Positions 1 through 27,003 of a DNA stretch of 33,323 nucleotides are shown here, piece by piece. This stretch comes from a virus. Taxonomy: Duplodnaviria > Caudoviricetes. Below the pieces are notes generated by a model. It saw nothing but the letters and a program-made list of their open reading frames with translations. It was not told the origin of the DNA and searched no databases. The stretch spans positions 1 through 33,323 of IMG/VR virus record IMGVR_UViG_3300030433_001502; one strand, 5' to 3'. The translations under genes were made by a program, and so were the position numbers. Position 1 is the stretch's first letter. Every line of letters begins with the position of its first letter.

Positions 1-9
1 GCTCATCTA

Positions 10-840
10 TTATTTTACAAAAAGTCTATTCTTATATTCTGATTCTGGAACTCCAAGTTTTTGTAACATACCTTCAACATCATCAAAAACTGCCCTAGCT
101 CCAATTTTTTCATCATCACTTAATCCTAAAGCTCCTAAAAATCCACCTCCGTCTAAAAAGTCAGCTCCCATGTCACTTCCAGCCATTTGTTTGTATAAAT
201 CCATAACTAAATTTTGTAGCTTTATTCTTTCTACATTATCAGGTGCAAGTCCTAATCTATTAACGTTCATAACAGCGCTTGCTAAATTAGCACCAAAATC
301 GTTGTATTTTGATATTAAATCAGATTCATTAAAACCTAAGCCCATAACACCTCTTTGCTCTCCTAAGAAATCAATAACTGATGGGTTAGCTCTAAAATTA
401 GGAGCTATATATTCCTTTCTTAACTTTTCTTTCTCTCTTTCTATTTGCTCTTTTACTTTCTTTTCATCTAAGCCATATTCTAATTTTATTCTTTCAAGCA
501 ATGCGTCATTTCCTGCTTTTATAGAGGCGACATTTTCATCGCTTTTTATTTGCATTCTTGCAAGTTCATTTGCGAATCTTGCAGAATCTTTTTTACTCTG
601 TTGATTTAACTGCAGTTCTAAAACTTTTAATTGATTTTCAAAATTTTTAGCTTGATTAGCAGAATCTATTTTTGCTTGTTTTTCAAATCTTGCAGAATCT
701 AATTTTGCTTTTTTATTAAACATTTCTCTTTCAAACTGCTTATCTCTTCTGTCTTTTGACCTAGCCTCTGCATTTTGTGTGTTTATTCTATTCTGAGCAC
801 CAACTTCATTAATTATTTGTCTTACAATTTCATTTTGCAT
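10..840 (-). CDS. Putative internal virion (ejection) protein, coiled-coil rich
   Basis: 276 aa, helical and rich in Q/K/E. It lies downstream of the nozzle-like gene, where podoviruses usually encode ejection proteins (positional inference). Confidence 0.45.
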   Translation of the reverse strand: MQNEIVRQIINEVGAQNRINTQNAEARSKDRRDKQFEREMFNKKAKLDSARFEKQAKIDSANQAKNFENQLKVLELQLNQQSKKDSARFANELARMQIKSDENVASIKAGNDALLERIKLEYGLDEKKVKEQIEREKEKLRKEYIAPNFRANPSVIDFLGEQRGVMGLGFNESDLISKYNDFGANLASAVMNVNRLGLAPDNVERIKLQNLVMDLYKQMAGSDMGADFLDGGGFLGALGLSDDEKIGARAVFDDVEGMLQKLGVPESEYKNRLFVK

Positions 841-1394
841 TATGAATTCCTTATCTGTTCTTTTCTTGTTTCTAAAGACATTATTCTATCAGAAGCTTGA
901 GCATCTCTTTCTAAATTCCTAGTAATAGTGTCTTGATAATTTATATTACTTTTATTAATAGCATTTTGTATTGCCTCTTTGCCTCGCATGTACCTACTAG
1001 AATCTTGTGCTAAATTACTGCTCATATTAATACTGCCTAGTATACCGCCAACTTTTTTGTTTTCGTTTAAATTAACACTATTAAATCTATCTAAAGCTAA
1101 TTTTTTAGTAGTAGCATTATTTTCATTAATATTGGCAATATCTTTATCTAAAGCATTAAGTAGCCCTCTTTTTCTATCTGCAGTAGTGCCACTTTCCCAT
1201 AGCCCAAGCATTTCACCACCTTCTCCAATTAATCCTTTTCGTCCAATATGTGTGTCCCAAAAAGTAGCTAATCCCTTACCAAGCTTTCCACTTCTACGAA
1301 TACCTTTTCCCACAGGATTGCCAAGATATTGATTTGCTCCAATACCTGCTAAGGTATAATAAAGCGCTTTCATCCCTGCTGTAAGTCCTACCAT
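840..1394 (-). CDS. Putative internal virion (ejection) protein
   Basis: 184 aa with a Gly-rich hydrophobic N-terminus followed by a helical region. Coupled to its neighbours by TAATG overlaps. Confidence 0.4.
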   Translation of the reverse strand: MVGLTAGMKALYYTLAGIGANQYLGNPVGKGIRRSGKLGKGLATFWDTHIGRKGLIGEGGEMLGLWESGTTADRKRGLLNALDKDIANINENNATTKKLALDRFNSVNLNENKKVGGILGSINMSSNLAQDSSRYMRGKEAIQNAINKSNINYQDTITRNLERDAQASDRIMSLETRKEQIRNS

Positions 1395-22087: not shown

Positions 22088-23569
22088 TTATACAGTTAAC
22101 CAGTCTTTTGCTCTATGTAATACACTCTTTTTTAAGGCATGTGTCTCGACAACTTCATGATGTGGGCTATAAGAATTTTTATTAGCATAATACAATCCAT
22201 CTAATAAATCATCATGCTTTCCCCTAGGAAATAACGATAATTCATCTTTTAAATCTTGCATTGTGTCTAATATATGAACCTTTCCTCTAGAAAACATAGG
22301 TTGCATACTTTCAAGTCTTCTTGATTTACTGTTCCTAGGATTTTCTTTAATATTTAATCCAGGTATAAATATTTTTTCTTCTTCGCTTCTTTTTATAACA
22401 TACTCACGTAACATCTCTTGATATCCAACGCTTTCTATTCTTGTTCTCTCAGAGCGATATCGTTTATAATTTTTTACTATTGCCTCTGCTAAATTTAAGG
22501 GAGTAGCCCTTTCTCTGTAATAAGGCAAACAATATCTGTTTCCATCTTTATCAACTGCTATGTTAAATATCACAGAGTAATCAGCAGTTTGTTTCGTACT
22601 AGACGCAGGGTCTACTCCCGTAAATATATTAACTGGAACTTCTTTTACTTGTGGAAAAGTTAAATCTAATACAGCATTGCCTTCTGCATCGTGTCTTATT
22701 TCTCCTTTGTAATATTGCAAATCTTCTAGTTTAAACAACTGGTCTTCATCGCCTACAATTTCACACATGTATTCTCTATAAAATACAGAAAGCCTATTAA
22801 TTGAATCTAGTTCGTCTTTTTTCTGTTTTAATTTTTTTATAGACCACCAATCTTCCCATAAAGCATATCCCTTATCAAAATCTGGTTTGTAAGTTAAATT
22901 TAACCAGCCTTTCATATCCTTTAATGTTTCAACCATACAACGCTGATGTTGAGGCGTACCAACAATAATTATTCTTCCTTTTCTAGGGTCTAGTGACGGA
23001 ACTGCTGATTGTAGCAACCAACGTAAGTTGGACTCCATTGCTTCTGCTGTTTTAGTGTTATTTTCATCTTCAGGGTCATCAACAATAATTAGGCTAGGGC
23101 GCTGGTTCCCGATTTTTATTCCACGTAACTGCTGACCTGTCCCTTTGCAAATTATCATTGACCCATCTTTTAACTCTATTTCAGACTTAGCCCAGCTTTT
23201 AGCAGAATGTTGGCCCCAATAGCCAAACATTTCACGACACTGGTCGCTATAATCAAGTGTATCTTTTATTAAACCGAGTAATTTTACTGCATGGTCTTGA
23301 GTTCTAGATACCAGAACTATTAACTTTTTTCCTTCTCCAAAAAATAAATGATGCATAGGTAATATACCGCCAACAATAGAACTTTTAGCGTGACCTCTAG
23401 GAGCGACAATATTTATTTGCTTATTATCTAAATTCATTACATGTTTTGCTAGGTCGTAATGAAAATCAGGTGATTTAGCAGAAAACATATTTGGGATACA
23501 TATTTTCCCAAACATCATCATGTCGTCTCTTAATCTTAAAAGTATTTCTTTTCTTTTGGAGTCATCCAT
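22088..23569 (-). CDS. terL: Terminase large subunit
   Basis: Walker A APRGHAKS, Walker B IIVDDPE, coupling motif VGTP, and RNase H-like nuclease motifs GVDPA and HDDLLD. Confidence 0.93.
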   Translation of the reverse strand: MDDSKRKEILLRLRDDMMMFGKICIPNMFSAKSPDFHYDLAKHVMNLDNKQINIVAPRGHAKSSIVGGILPMHHLFFGEGKKLIVLVSRTQDHAVKLLGLIKDTLDYSDQCREMFGYWGQHSAKSWAKSEIELKDGSMIICKGTGQQLRGIKIGNQRPSLIIVDDPEDENNTKTAEAMESNLRWLLQSAVPSLDPRKGRIIIVGTPQHQRCMVETLKDMKGWLNLTYKPDFDKGYALWEDWWSIKKLKQKKDELDSINRLSVFYREYMCEIVGDEDQLFKLEDLQYYKGEIRHDAEGNAVLDLTFPQVKEVPVNIFTGVDPASSTKQTADYSVIFNIAVDKDGNRYCLPYYRERATPLNLAEAIVKNYKRYRSERTRIESVGYQEMLREYVIKRSEEEKIFIPGLNIKENPRNSKSRRLESMQPMFSRGKVHILDTMQDLKDELSLFPRGKHDDLLDGLYYANKNSYSPHHEVVETHALKKSVLHRAKDWLTV

Positions 23570-23733
23570 TAATAATCAGAGCCTATTAATCTATTTATAT
23601 CATCTTCATATGCATTTAAACCCATGTCTTCTGCAACTGCAACTAAGACCTTACTGAATGAATCAAGTTTCCTTGCATCTTCTTTTTTTGTTTCTACTAC
23701 AAAATGTTTTGATATTTTCTTATCATCCTTCAT
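23569..23733 (-). CDS. 54-aa hypothetical protein between TerS and TerL
   Basis: Translated by hand (MKDDKKISKHFVVETKKEDARKLDSFSKVLVAVAEDMGLNAYEDDINRLIGSDY); stop overlaps the terL ATG. Confidence 0.6.
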   Translation of the reverse strand: MKDDKKISKHFVVETKKEDARKLDSFSKVLVAVAEDMGLNAYEDDINRLIGSDY

Positions 23734-24487
23734 CTACGTCCTTAGTCCTTTCTAATTTTAACTGACGAGTTTCTTCTGTGGCTATCTCGTCAAGTATTTT
23801 TTTCGATACATCTATTTGTAATGTATCTGTTTGTTGTGTTTTTGAGGGCAACATGTCCATAATCTTTATATATTGCTCTGCACCACGTAACATATTACTA
23901 GGGTCAGCATTATTTCGAGCAATTGTTATTGCTTCTGCTATTACATCTAGCACATCTCCTTGATTTAGCTCTCTTTCGTCTAAATATCTTTGTATTTCTT
24001 GGTCTATCATACTTGTAATCCTTTTTTGTTTAAATAACCTTTTTGCAGTAACAGCAGGTTTAGCTTGGTCTGGTCTATATGCGCTACCAATTGCGTCCCA
24101 GTTGATTTTTCCAGTGCCAAGCATCATATTAACATATAGTTTTACAGCGTTTTTTGTACGTTGTAAGCTCGATTCTCTTTCATCCCATGTCCTAGTCCCA
24201 GTTTGGGAATATTGTCCCGTATCCCTATGAGGTTCGTACAATAATTTAGCATTATCATTAATCCACATCCTACCATACGGCATTACAATCTGATATGCTT
24301 CCTTATATTTAGCTTTTTTTAGGCATTCTGCTACATAATTATCATCTGACAGCGCTAATTGTCCAGTTTTAGCATCTTTCCAGTAAACAAAGTCCAATCC
24401 ACGCTCTTTTGCTTCCTGTTTTGTCATTATTGGGTAAGTTACTTCTTCCCAATTATTTATTTTTAGCTTTCTTGATAAAAAATCCAT
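23723..24487 (-). CDS. Putative terminase small subunit with extra N-terminal domain
   Basis: Upstream of terL. The C-terminal half has an HTH-like AYRP..AKRLFKQKRITSMI segment followed by an oligomerisation-type helical hairpin. Confidence 0.55.
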   Translation of the reverse strand: MDFLSRKLKINNWEEVTYPIMTKQEAKERGLDFVYWKDAKTGQLALSDDNYVAECLKKAKYKEAYQIVMPYGRMWINDNAKLLYEPHRDTGQYSQTGTRTWDERESSLQRTKNAVKLYVNMMLGTGKINWDAIGSAYRPDQAKPAVTAKRLFKQKRITSMIDQEIQRYLDERELNQGDVLDVIAEAITIARNNADPSNMLRGAEQYIKIMDMLPSKTQQTDTLQIDVSKKILDEIATEETRQLKLERTKDVDEG

Positions 24488-24493
24488 GCTTAT

Positions 24494-24558
24494 TACTGTA
24501 TATTATATATACTTCAGTTAATACTACTGTAATGTATATACTGTATATACACTACTGT
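24494..24558. repeat. AT-rich cluster of four TACTGT direct repeats and two GTATATAC palindromes
   Basis: TACTGT at 24494, 24525, 24539 and 24553; GTATATAC at 24534 and 24543. Confidence 0.75.
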
Positions 24559-24598
24559 TAAAAAAAGGCAATAATCTAATAGAATGTCAAGTGTTATT

Positions 24599-24784
24599 TT
24601 AGTCTTTTTCATCATATTTTAAATAATAGTCCTGTTTTTTTGCTAAAATATTTTTTTCTACCTCTTTTATTTGCTCTTCTGCTATGTGATAGTCTAAATA
24701 TAGTAAAAATTGCTCAACGTCTCCTTCTGTAGAATTTATCTTTTCCCATACTTTTTTAGTCGCATTCCATTTTTCTATATCCAT
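24599..24784 (-). CDS. Hypothetical protein, first ORF of the late arm
   Basis: 61-aa ORF with phage-like composition. Confidence 0.6.
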   Translation of the reverse strand: MDIEKWNATKKVWEKINSTEGDVEQFLLYLDYHIAEEQIKEVEKNILAKKQDYYLKYDEKD

Positions 24785-24901
24785 GCTGGAAAATACCTAA
24801 TGGTGATATGGAAACTCTAGTAAAAATTTCAAAAATTTGCTTTAGAATGCGTGTGAGAGATATACAGCATTACTACCCCCCACTCTTTGTTGCATGGTGG
24901 T

Positions 24902-24958
24902 AGACTTTTTCGTTGAGAATTGTCGTGAGTTACGTTGTGTCTCAACAGGAAGAAGTCT
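24902..24958 (+). other. Long imperfect hairpin in the divergent intergenic region
   Basis: AGACTTTTTC/GAAGAAGTCT and GTTGAGA/TCTCAAC arms. Confidence 0.6.
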
Positions 24959-25047
24959 CCCGCCTCCAACAAAAGTTGCCCCTGTACTGCGTAGCGTGTG
25001 TTTTCATACGTGTTTAATTCTTAATTAACTAATGAAAGAGGTATAAT

Positions 25048-25374
25048 ATGACCATTGATTTTAAGTTAAACGCTGTTAGTATTGGAAAGATTAATTCTAA
25101 AGTTTCTAAGGAATTGATTGATGCAAAGATTGAATCTTGGATAGACGTTTGTGATGCTATCTTTGTGTCTTGTTCTGATAAGGCTGATAAGGTTACTGAG
25201 GCTAAGAATACTTTAGTATCATTTGCTCAAGCTTGTAAGTTTGAACAGACTGAGCCTACTGAAGTAGAATCTAAGTATGAGGGTTCCAAAGTGTTTGTTT
25301 GTAATAAAGTCCCATTGAAAGATGTTGATGATAATACGAACTATGCTTTGAATCTCATAGGCAGAGGTAACTAA
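25048..25374 (+). CDS. Hypothetical protein, first early gene
   Basis: 108 aa, GAGGT SD, followed by its own terminator-like hairpin. Confidence 0.8.
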   Translation: MTIDFKLNAVSIGKINSKVSKELIDAKIESWIDVCDAIFVSCSDKADKVTEAKNTLVSFAQACKFEQTEPTEVESKYEGSKVFVCNKVPLKDVDDNTNYALNLIGRGN

Positions 25375-25382
25375 GGTTGATT

Positions 25383-25407
25383 AGGTCTAACGTATGTTAG
25401 GCCTTTT
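25383..25407 (+). terminator. Intrinsic terminator-like hairpin
   Basis: AGGTCTAAC-GTAT-GTTAGGCCT 9-bp stem with a short T run, 8 nt after the stop codon. Confidence 0.6.
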
Positions 25408-25450
25408 AAATCCGTGCATAAAAACAAATGCTTTATAACAGGAGGTCGAT

Positions 25451-25585
25451 ATCGCAGTTATTCAGGCGACTGAAAGATATTGGTTGATTGAGTCTGCTTT
25501 AGGCTCGTTTGTAGAAGTTAGTAGGGATGAATTTCCTACGCTTATACAAGCTATGGCTGAGGCTAGACGTCAATTGATTGATTGA
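25451..25585 (+). CDS. 44-aa ORF with a possible non-canonical ATC start
   Basis: Strong SD AGGAGGT 4 nt before ATC; in-frame TAA at 25436. Product: (M)AVIQATERYWLIESALGSFVEVSRDEFPTLIQAMAEARRQLID. Confidence 0.45.
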   Translation: MAVIQATERYWLIESALGSFVEVSRDEFPTLIQAMAEARRQLID

Positions 25586-25702
25586 TTTTAGTCATTATTG
25601 AATTAGATTCGGAGTGTAACGAGCTTGGCAACAGAAATGCGTTGATGTTAATTTTATTTTATTTATGAAGGCGATAAAAACGAAGATATTGTTATAAAAA
25701 GT

Positions 25703-25757
25703 CTCTGGCTAAACAGAGCGGAGGTTAAGTGGTTTCCTTGACTTATTAAAAAACCAC
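25703..25757 (+). ncRNA. Hairpin plus compact H-type pseudoknot candidate
   Basis: CTCTG/CAGAG hairpin; S1 AGGTTAAG(25722-29)/CTTGACTT(25737-44); S2 TGGTTT(25730-35)/AAACCA(25751-56); A-rich linker. Confidence 0.45.
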
Positions 25758-25773
25758 AAAGATTTATGATAGT

Positions 25774-26210
25774 GAGATTGCACTTGATATGTGTAACCAT
25801 TTTGCTATAGTAAGGTATAACGTAGACTAATCCTTTACGTCTTCCTAATTATGCTTATTGTCACTGATATAATGGCATGCATAAAAACGATAACAGTTGT
25901 AGTGACTGTAGTATGTGTAGTTGGGCTCCTAAAGAGTTGTGCTTCATACAAGCAATGTTAAGCTGTCGTTTGGTCGTATAATTTATATTCCTTATTACCG
26001 AAGATGGAGAAGTCCTATGTATCGGGTGAGTAGAAACAAGCCTTTGCAGTAAGGTCGCTCCTTGCTGTTTTTGTTATTCTGTCTTTGCTGTTTGCATTGA
26101 ATGTCTAACATAAAAGGTCTCATACGCAATGTAAACATGTTGTAAAGGCATGCATTGTTATAGCAAAACCGTAACGGGTATATCTAACCAACGGGGACAG
26201 GTGCAATCTC
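25774..26210 (+). ncRNA. Large (~437 nt) multi-branched structured RNA of unknown family
   Basis: End-to-end helices 25774-86/26198-210, 25787-92/26178-83 and 25800-18/26150-68 enclose five hairpin domains. Deviations from Watson-Crick pairing are mostly G-U on the plus strand. Confidence 0.75.
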
Positions 26211-26233
26211 TAATTAAAAAAGAAAGAAGTATT

Positions 26234-26437
26234 ATGTCAAAAGATAAAAATATAACCAAGTCAAATTATATAATGTTTGACGAGGAAGTAGTAAAAGTAT
26301 TGTATAAAATAATAGAAATGGTAGATGATGTAAAAACAAGATTTGACCACGTTAGAGGCGAGGTTGAGAATCGTGAAATAATGAAAGATGCATTGTCTAG
26401 AGCTATTGATATTATTGAACAAAAAGATTTTAAGTAA
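26234..26437 (+). CDS. 67-aa hypothetical protein (start revised from 26150)
   Basis: The ATG at 26150 lies inside the RNA closing helix. The ATG at 26234 follows an A/G-rich leader and gives a helical, protein-like sequence. Confidence 0.65.
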   Translation: MSKDKNITKSNYIMFDEEVVKVLYKIIEMVDDVKTRFDHVRGEVENREIMKDALSRAIDIIEQKDFK

Positions 26438-26442
26438 AAAAA

Positions 26443-26653
26443 TAAGCTGGCATTTGTTATCGCACACTTAGGCCAAAAACATTGCGAAACGAGGTCTGGA
26501 TGTATTTAATTCCTAGGATTAATTTCTTCCCACTTCAAAGTAACGTGTTTAATAGTGTAATCTAGTTATGAGCTAGTAGATAATTTTAAATGAACCTCTG
26601 TCAGACATGCGAAGTGCTCGGAGCCTCTCCATGAGTCAAGTTAAAACAGCTTA
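26443..26653 (+). ncRNA. Second structured RNA domain (~210 nt)
   Basis: Closing helix TAAGCTG(26443-49)/CAGCTTA(26647-53); inner TTAGGCC/GGTCTGG, CTAGTT/AGCTAG and GGAG/CTCC hairpins. No plus-strand ORF in the track. Confidence 0.45.
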
Positions 26654-26665
26654 GAATTTTTTTAA

Positions 26666-26804
26666 AACGGTGGTTGCTGTGACCTCCGCATTCTTTCCAT
26701 AACAGCAACCTCGTTATTACCATGCGCCATAGTGGTAGCTGGCAAATTATGGCAAAAGACGTTTTTCCTGTTTCTTTCCCGTCTTTTTTGATGCGTTTGT
26801 CAGC
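26666..26804 (+). ncRNA. Hairpin with pyrimidine-rich loop followed by a three-stem pseudoknot
   Basis: GGTTGCTGT/ACAGCAACC; TACCAT/GTGGTA; GCCATA/TATGGC (pseudoknot); GCTGGCAAAT/GTTTGTCAGC; AAAAGACG/CGTCTTTT. Confidence 0.6.
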
Positions 26805-26841
26805 ACAATTATTTTTAAAATAAAAAAGGAGAAAAATAAAA

Positions 26842-27003
26842 ATGAGCATAAATAAAGATGAGTTCATGCAGTATGAGAATTGTAGACTTGATGGTGATTA
26901 CAATATGTTTGACCCACGAGCTAGACAATCAACAAGCCTAGATAAGCATAAATGGTTATTTATTATGAGTAACTATGCTGATTTAGCAAAGAAATATTTA
27001 TAG
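26842..27003 (+). CDS. 53-aa protein, DUF5049-like
   Basis: Translated by hand: MSINKDEFMQYENCRLDGDYNMFDPRARQSTSLDKHKWLFIMSNYADLAKKYL. R..G..NMFD motif; AAGGAG SD. Confidence 0.7.
   Translation: MSINKDEFMQYENCRLDGDYNMFDPRARQSTSLDKHKWLFIMSNYADLAKKYL

Follow-up and report, generated by a model that had tools for sequence, protein, structure and literature searches.

A large structured RNA near the start of a marine podovirus's early arm: a new family of the GOLLD/ROOL kind

1. Introduction

Phages have yielded only a handful of large RNA-only classes (GOLLD and ROOL), and neither of the two has a known function (PMC12286853). Both assemble into nanocages held by kissing loops, some of which had initially been recorded as covarying pseudoknots; GOLLD has been recovered in a pull-down together with ribosomes, and the GOLLD copy env-38 lies downstream of a Met tRNA (PMC12286853). 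The candidates of Fremin et al. 2023 (PMC10690425) resemble the RNA described below in being predicted by covariation from intergenic regions of IMG/VR, but their motifs span 29–151 nt only. The whole of the present RNA therefore falls outside that set, in which a fragment of it could be included; the portion of the PMC10690425 supplementary data searched by motif or contig name holds no match.

The window analyzed here is the whole stretch of 33,323 nt that makes up IMG/VR record IMGVR_UViG_3300030433_001502. An original prediction, made from the sequence of the window, placed a large, branched, possibly new class of phage non-coding RNA at 25774–26210, and every sequence string that it quoted is present where it was placed. 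Full-text literature searches, with most subscription papers outside their scope, turned up no description of this RNA, nor is it mentioned in the main-text parts of 10.64898/2026.10.21.760802 and 10.64898/2026.09.22.753630 that were covered.

2. The Phage and Its Early Arm

As a linear virus record of about 71% completeness, the window represents an uncultured marine podovirus of the P22-like type. Its genes encode a P22-like portal, an SU10-type capsid protein, the large terminase, an endolysin and a Sak-like annealing protein. The structural genes occupy the minus strand up to about 24.8 kb, and the small and replication genes occupy the plus strand from 25.0 kb. The GC skew flips at ~25.0 kb, coinciding with the onset of the plus-strand arm, and the RNA lies in the first kilobase of this (early) arm. 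Expression at the start of infection, as originally proposed, would follow from this position; the RNA contigs described below give neither time nor strand. The features that frame the RNA are as follows.

22088–23569, minus strand: large terminase (PHROG 38, E 1e-80), divergent from the RNA
23723–24487, minus strand: likely small terminase (Terminase_2, E 0.008, below the cut-off), divergent from the RNA
25772–26210, probably plus strand: RNA gene, delimited by homology and RNA contig ends
26234–26437, plus strand: first ORF 3′ of the RNA, 67 aa, with its ribosome-binding region outside helix P1

The stretch is contained, whole or in part, in 20 of the 24 listed sequencing runs, and those that carry a label are marine or estuarine. 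No close cultured relative was found: the 25 top-ranked terminase matches listed are 24–27% identical, and blastn against 50,697 GenBank phages gave only short chance matches, each covering at most 8% of the query. A sigma-70 scan gave 15 sites vs 11.7 expected, which is what chance would yield, and no promoter was assigned.

Several other elements lie near the RNA. A near-perfect inverted repeat occupies 24526–24558, where the terminase genes and the early arm diverge, and a similar AT-rich palindrome is present in the related locus L204. A small ORF of ~48 codons (under the 60-aa cut-off) at 25436–25582 has relatives in 17 of 104 loci. At 25596–25650 there is a non-coding element conserved in close relatives and in locus L360; in L204 this element scores 15.8 bits as alpha-tmRNA, a very weak match that is probably due to chance. 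Just 5′ of the RNA, 25703–25760 contains two hairpins, for which compensatory changes were noted by eye in locus L203.

3. Extent of the RNA and Its Homologues

After identical copies were dropped, nine distinct sequences remained, namely those of the window and of loci L201, L203, L048, L004, L155, L002, L204 and L400. They are 72–98% identical and 388–437 nt long. The RNA is 437 nt in the window (25774–26210) and 388–396 nt in the seven homologues without an insertion in arm P8. Two pairs are close, L201 and the window at 98% identity and L204 and L002 at 96%, so that the nine sequences represent ~7 independent lineages. In all nine, homology stops at P1, and the flanks are AU-rich. In line with the original claim that no credible ORF is present, none of 60 aa or longer spans the RNA; one from 26150 overlaps its 3′ arm.

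The RNA was found in three of 80 terminase loci, only 30 of which had sufficient upstream DNA. Pattern scans of IMG/VR and JGI metagenomes yielded further homologues. In two of these scans three true loci were present among the at least 238 matches listed, the rest being mostly chance, and one further pattern scan gave zero matches. None of 34 cellular pattern loci is a homologue or matches model R1. Models R1 and R2 found no distant homologues beyond the nine sequences. The ninth sequence, L400, was found after the structure had been fixed.

4. Comparative Structure

The consensus structure, obtained with RNAalifold on eight sequences plus a pseudoknot spotted by eye, has 101 pairs in 17 helices. 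Across the eight, pairing holds in 99.3% of 807 cells and two-sided changes occur in 32 pairs; with L400 included, 99.0% of 909 cells pair and two-sided changes affect 33 of the 101 pairs, in keeping with the claim that selection acts on RNA. In the controls on nine sequences, none of 500 shuffles scored as high, and slid controls gave 30–46%. Further pair types were not above the shuffle level (316/500 shuffles). As the structure was derived from the same sequences as the counts, L400 is the cleaner test. At 74% identity to the window, it retains 98 of the 101 pairs and adds four new pair types; 29 pairs differ between the two, and 26 of these still pair. The predicted bias towards G-U is also seen, with 85 G-U vs 0 A-C among the 909 cells of a structure chosen for the plus strand.

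A rod, P1–P3, joins the ends of the RNA and closes a five-way junction of P3, P4, P7, P8 and P9. P4 in turn closes a four-way junction with P4a, P5 and P6, and P6 closes another. The parts are listed below, all entered on the probable plus strand.

25774–25809, plus strand: 5′ strand of rod P1-P2-P3, making 30 pairs with 26159–26209
25810–25995, plus strand: core domain closed by P4 (25810-15/25990-95), defined by RNAalifold, pair counts and model R1
25866–25872, plus strand: 5′ half of the pseudoknot, in the P5 loop, paired with 25983–25989 in 100% of cells
25872–25961, plus strand: 29-codon open frame rich in Val, Thr and Ile, inside P5-P6, probably incidental
25983–25989, plus strand: 3′ half of the pseudoknot, directly before the 3′ side of P4, placed by covariation
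25998–26025, plus strand: P7, including an inner hairpin with an invariant GAAG loop, placed by covariation
26026–26123, plus strand: P8, the variable arm, from comparison of nine sequences
26126–26158, plus strand: P9 hairpin, adjoining the 3′ strand of P3, placed by covariation
26159–26210, plus strand: 3′ strand of rod P1-P2-P3, with the invariant unpaired bulge ACCAACGGGGA at 26187–26197

The closing helices of the original prediction are upheld by covariation in nine sequences: two-sided changes occur in 4/12 pairs of P1 and in 5/9 pairs of P3, and there are none in the mostly invariant P2. Its second long helix survives in part. The outer 9 bp are P3, whereas the inner segment 25810-18/26150-58 is replaced by P4, with 4/6 pairs two-sided, and by P9 (26126-31/26153-58), whose inner 4/4 pairs are two-sided. 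The core domain contains hairpin P4a, an invariant CUUCC, P5 (3/11 pairs two-sided), the four-way P6 subdomain (5/25, inner helices included) and an invariant GGUCG.

Four of the five arms first drawn also stand, as P4a, P5, P6 and P7. The first of these, ACGTAGA/TTTACGT, varies in sequence, yet a hairpin folds there in all nine. P7 shows two-sided changes in 2/7 pairs (2/3 in its inner hairpin). The fifth arm was lost: its outer helix pairs in only 57% of cells in eight sequences, in 6/8 the alignment is gapped where the inner helix should have its 5′ strand, and one inner pair is broken even in the 98%-identical L201. It belongs to the single-sequence minimum-energy fold and fails comparison, and P8 and P9 take its place. 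In the window the comparative fold costs ~6 kcal/mol more than the minimum-energy fold, with the pseudoknot left out. P8 varies in kind. Its stem (26026-30/26119-23) has 4/5 pairs two-sided. In seven homologues the arm is a single hairpin with a self-complementary UAGCUA tip, and in the window and L201 it carries a branched insertion of ~45 nt, with a terminator-like hairpin (26046–26068) and no UAGCUA tip.

The first account had overlooked a helix and the 7-bp pseudoknot 25866-72/25983-89. Two pairs of this pseudoknot, or kissing contact, show two-sided changes, with exchanges among G-U, A-U and G-C at one end and between A-U and U-A at the other. The structure leaves 97 invariant unpaired positions, including CUUCC, GAAG, UGUU, GGUCG and ACCAACGGGGA, several of them mutually complementary; their conservation suggests tertiary contacts or a binding surface. 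The GAAG loop is complementary to the invariant CUUC at 25841-44, where there is no covariation. Further four-base pairings between invariant unpaired stretches show no covariation and were not counted. Some homologues have a stretch, AAGAUAUAGU, resembling the group I intron S element; this reading was rejected, as the stretch is taken up by P3 and P4.

Folding energy points in the same direction as the original prediction. The plus strand folds at -123.8 kcal/mol (z -3.0, 1/100 shuffles as good), and the minus strand gives z -1.05 (16/100 shuffles as good). By itself this is a modest argument, since the sense z of six homologues, at 15 shuffles each, ranges from -1.1 to -4.6 and in L204 the antisense strand gives the better fold. 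Overall, we regard 25774–26210 as almost certainly a functional structured RNA.

The open frame inside P5-P6 raises the idea that the RNA is a folded-back mRNA for a hydrophobic peptide of 29–33 residues. Type I toxin mRNAs and the mRNAs of branched-chain amino acid leader peptides are models for such an arrangement. The same frame opens with ATG or TTG in 8/8 sequences examined, and third positions make up 5/9 variable sites in its first 14 codons. However, 5/9 is near the one third expected by chance, and one-base indels shift the frame in 4/8. No Shine-Dalgarno sequence precedes the frame, although this phage's genes do have them, and the peptide matches no Pfam family over the cut-off and nothing in the PDB. 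Pairing explains most of the changes, and the first base of the start codon is itself a covarying pseudoknot position. We consider a peptide mRNA extremely unlikely, and the conserved fold is read in what follows as that of a functional RNA.

5. Presence in RNA Libraries

RNA coverage was examined over 24400–26800 in assembled contigs of four runs from four studies, X14, X17, X18 and X20, out of six RNA runs that contain the stretch (the others being X16 and X19); the runs were picked by a query, 25400–26900, that included the RNA, and RNA runs alone entered the comparison. In X14 a single contig, 25772–26198, has a depth of 243. Its neighbours have depths of 5.3 and 7.1, and 24400–25371 is without cover. 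The RNA thus stands ~35–45x above its neighbours, a level reached in this one run only. X17, X18 and X20 contain a small share of the query words; missing cover outside the RNA is no proof of silence there, and their four contigs (depth 2.6–3.7) all lie inside 25773–26194. The metatranscriptome check proposed with the original prediction accordingly shows a discrete, abundant species.

On the 5′ side, contigs begin at 25772 (X14) and 25773 (X18); on the 3′ side, they stop at 26198 (X14) and 26194 (X20). Contigs reveal neither strand nor true ends, and the two starts, one base apart at the 5′ end of P1 in two studies, are a weak hint of a defined end. The RNA is probably on the plus strand, given the G-U pairs, the gene direction, and the same-strand tRNA-like genes and GOLLD in relatives (see Section 6). 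In one X20 contig (depth 2.9), which is probably a strain variant, three different letters replace 26069–26115, a 47-base portion of the P8 insertion. One low-level contig lies upstream:

25414–25639, entered as plus strand (contigs are strand-blind): low-level upstream RNA contig, X14 depth 5.3, a possible precursor

Two nearby elements touch the X14 contigs. The first, at 25383–25430, consists of a hairpin, a T run and a conserved AATCCGTGCATAAAAA motif, recognized by eye in many relatives; the low-level X14 contig has one end at 25414, and the element is a possible promoter or processing site. The second, at 26480–26545, is a hairpin with a palindromic CCTAGG loop that overlaps X14 contig 26491–26652 (depth 7), and elements like it were seen by eye at other positions in L002 and L048.

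These data bear on a second reading, in which the RNA is a cis-acting leader, an antiterminator or attenuator, carrying RNA polymerase through the early operon. It does sit at the start of the early arm, it has a terminator-like hairpin plus T run inside it (26046–26068), and in 5/9 sequences a start codon follows ~25–50 nt downstream. Against this, the hairpin lies within an insertion present in only 2/9 and the X14 contig reads through it, the ribosome-binding region is outside P1, and the depth of the RNA far exceeds that of its neighbours. That most relatives have no copy of the RNA, and that different genes follow it, weighs further against the antiterminator role suggested in the original prediction. 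We judge a cis-acting leader very unlikely.

6. Distribution, Transfer and a Shared Slot

The RNA is present in 4/50 records searched over their whole length, one of the four having been included as a known carrier, and in 2/8 complete ones. All six carriers with a classed record are phages. Between copies of the RNA, the neighbouring genes differ on both sides. Record G059 carries the RNA with a terminase 66% identical to that of the window. Record G039 carries it at the head of its early arm, with a terminase 33% and a portal 29% identical to the window's; its RNA is 78% identical to that of the window and 87–88% identical to those of L002 and L204. Such similarity on such distant genomes suggests that the RNA has moved between distant podoviruses.

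The lineage of G039 was represented by 19 loci found via its small-terminase-like gene, and G039 alone among them has the RNA. In L343 the flanks are 75–83% identical to those of G039 on both sides, with a different folded sequence of 690 nt between them, and L343 vs L347 shows a clean replacement between conserved flanks. In L346 the slot holds a GOLLD on the same strand and between the same flanking genes as the G039 RNA. The two occupants are listed here.

L343 2640–3330, minus strand: 690-nt folded RNA, z -5.4, same slot
L346 1500–2345, minus strand: full-length diverged GOLLD, 118.9 bits, E 1e-30 (gathering score 150 bits)

The swap with GOLLD is real, seen once (1/19 loci) and below the Rfam gathering score; L345 5497–5554 contains only the first 58 bases of the L346 GOLLD. 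GOLLD was not found in the 50 records, which are mostly of the window's own lineage, by a method that is positive on L346. Nothing in Rfam at E up to 1, and nothing in 99 loci, matches the L343 RNA. A UAAUCUCA loop caps its last hairpin and is seen at the end of GOLLD too; the L343 RNA may be a GOLLD that has diverged far, or a further new family. In other relatives the slot holds many different hairpin clusters (rough folding, 5 shuffles), and it may be a general insertion hot spot.

Degenerate initiator-like tRNA-Met genes lie 7–10 nt upstream of the RNA in L004 and L048 (2/9); they are below standard thresholds, and ARAGORN at default misses them. In L026, positions 1–960 (minus strand) form a long hairpin-rich non-coding region directly after a tRNA-Met gene; it has no match to R1, R2 or Rfam.

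This distribution could also be that of a ribozyme or selfish RNA module spreading between phages. The patchy spread, the transfer between distant phages, the clean replacement in L343 vs L347 and the invariant unpaired core all fit such an element. On the other hand, no Rfam ribozyme or intron matches at E up to 10, the flanks are not exon-like, and the contigs have no splicing or circularization joint, a weak point. No linked reverse transcriptase was found in five carriers (three of them at least 90% complete), with a control positive in 3/14 genomes, or among the 42 proteins of the ~71% complete window. A selfish element is in our estimation decidedly unlikely.

A further candidate partner is a small gene nearby:

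26842–27003: 53-aa ORF, ~630 bases 3′ of the RNA

In another reading the RNA is a monomeric scaffold, folded into one compact particle that binds a particular protein, for which the phage's own 53-aa product is a possible candidate. The invariant unpaired positions would suit such a surface, and the ORF is present in the window and 4/5 other carriers vs 2/29 non-carriers. Yet three of those four carriers are close kin of the window and many non-carriers are fragments, so that kinship explains much of the co-occurrence. In G059 the RNA occurs without the protein, and in G051 and G009 it is the RNA that is missing; the gene is also near the large RNA in L343. The protein belongs to no Pfam family, DUF5049 being a weak lead only (0.82), and the Atlas gives unnamed viral clusters only. 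We think the scaffold reading unlikely.

7. Proposed Role

The reading that we prefer, and hold to be about evenly balanced between right and wrong, is that of a discrete, abundant, folded phage RNA that would act in trans in a GOLLD-like role during infection. Action in trans is suggested by the absence of the RNA from most relatives and by neighbours that differ on both sides. The RNA would likely be cut out of the first early transcript, presumably through cleavage of the AU-rich flanks by host nucleases or, for the two copies next to a tRNA-like gene, through tRNA processing. The 30-pair rod that joins its ends likely keeps it stable. Copies would then pair loop-to-loop to form a putative RNA-only particle. 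During takeover this particle might soak up or shield a putative host factor, for instance a defence protein that associates with ribosomes or binds RNA. Candidate loop contacts are the covarying pseudoknot and the self-complementary UAGCUA tip of 7/9 sequences. The pseudoknot can equally well be intramolecular, and a UAGCUA contact would be dispensable in some phages, given that the window and L201 lack the tip. The common slot would imply a common job with GOLLD.

A broader and tentative proposal, which we find possible though doubtful, is that marine podoviruses maintain a "large RNA slot" where their early region begins, in which the unrelated folds of GOLLD, the ~400-nt family and the L343 RNA interchange for the same job. 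The present RNA would then rank as the smallest natural RNA particle of this self-assembling kind known so far, an RNA-only tool for takeover or counter-defence. If GOLLD and the new RNA are interchangeable, a shared partner, oligomer or phenotype would point to the purpose of such RNAs. With ~390 nt and nine natural variants, the RNA is an easy target for probing and cryo-EM.

8. Comparison with Known RNA Families

At the Rfam gathering score there are 0 matches in the window and 57 loci, a threshold that is weak for diverged members, as it misses the L346 GOLLD and tRNAs. Lower thresholds do not change the outcome: no family matches the window RNA at E up to 10, and none lies over the RNA at E up to 3 in six further loci, which contain five homologues. 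The original prediction had seen no tRNA, tmRNA, RNase P or group I/II core, and it agrees here with ARAGORN (0 genes) and with Rfam, where even at E up to 10 the models of RNase P RNA, group I/II introns and known ribozymes give no match. In length and in its paired 5′ and 3′ ends the RNA resembles tmRNA and RNase P RNA, and the long irregular rod is like P2 of tmRNA. Unlike tmRNA, the RNA lacks a tRNA-like domain, a T arm and a CCA end.

ROOL is comparable: an abundant, multi-junctioned RNA of phages and prophages, found near tRNAs, with pseudoknots and with no known protein partner (PMC5737381, PMC12286853). Its Rfam model gives no match, and the new RNA differs from ROOL in architecture (~581 nt, six junctions, three pseudoknots in ROOL).

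The GOLLD model RF02032 does not match at the gathering score or at E up to 10, with the L346 GOLLD (118.9 bits) as positive control. A free GOLLD 5′ domain would lie outside that 416-position model. For this reading, R1 run unfiltered gave at best 7.7 bits (E 8.6), and R2 and nhmmer found nothing in the 5′ part of the L346 GOLLD, the one GOLLD 5′ domain compared, which folds as local hairpins. GOLLD often exceeds 800 nt (PMC12286853) and has separate 5′ and 3′ domains, whereas the RNA described here has 388–437 nt and one rod-closed domain. In other respects the two are alike: each is a large, ornate, abundant phage RNA with no partner gene. Some GOLLD copies lie near a Met tRNA, and a degenerate tRNA-Met-like gene, below standard thresholds, adjoins 2/9 of the present sequences; in the related phage L346 a GOLLD occupies the same genomic slot on the same strand. 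The claim of a possibly new class therefore holds for the family, but not for a new kind of thing. We conclude that the RNA is a new family of the GOLLD/ROOL kind: a fold unrelated to theirs, half the size of GOLLD, backed by covariation, abundant in the sea and apparently exchanged between distant phages.
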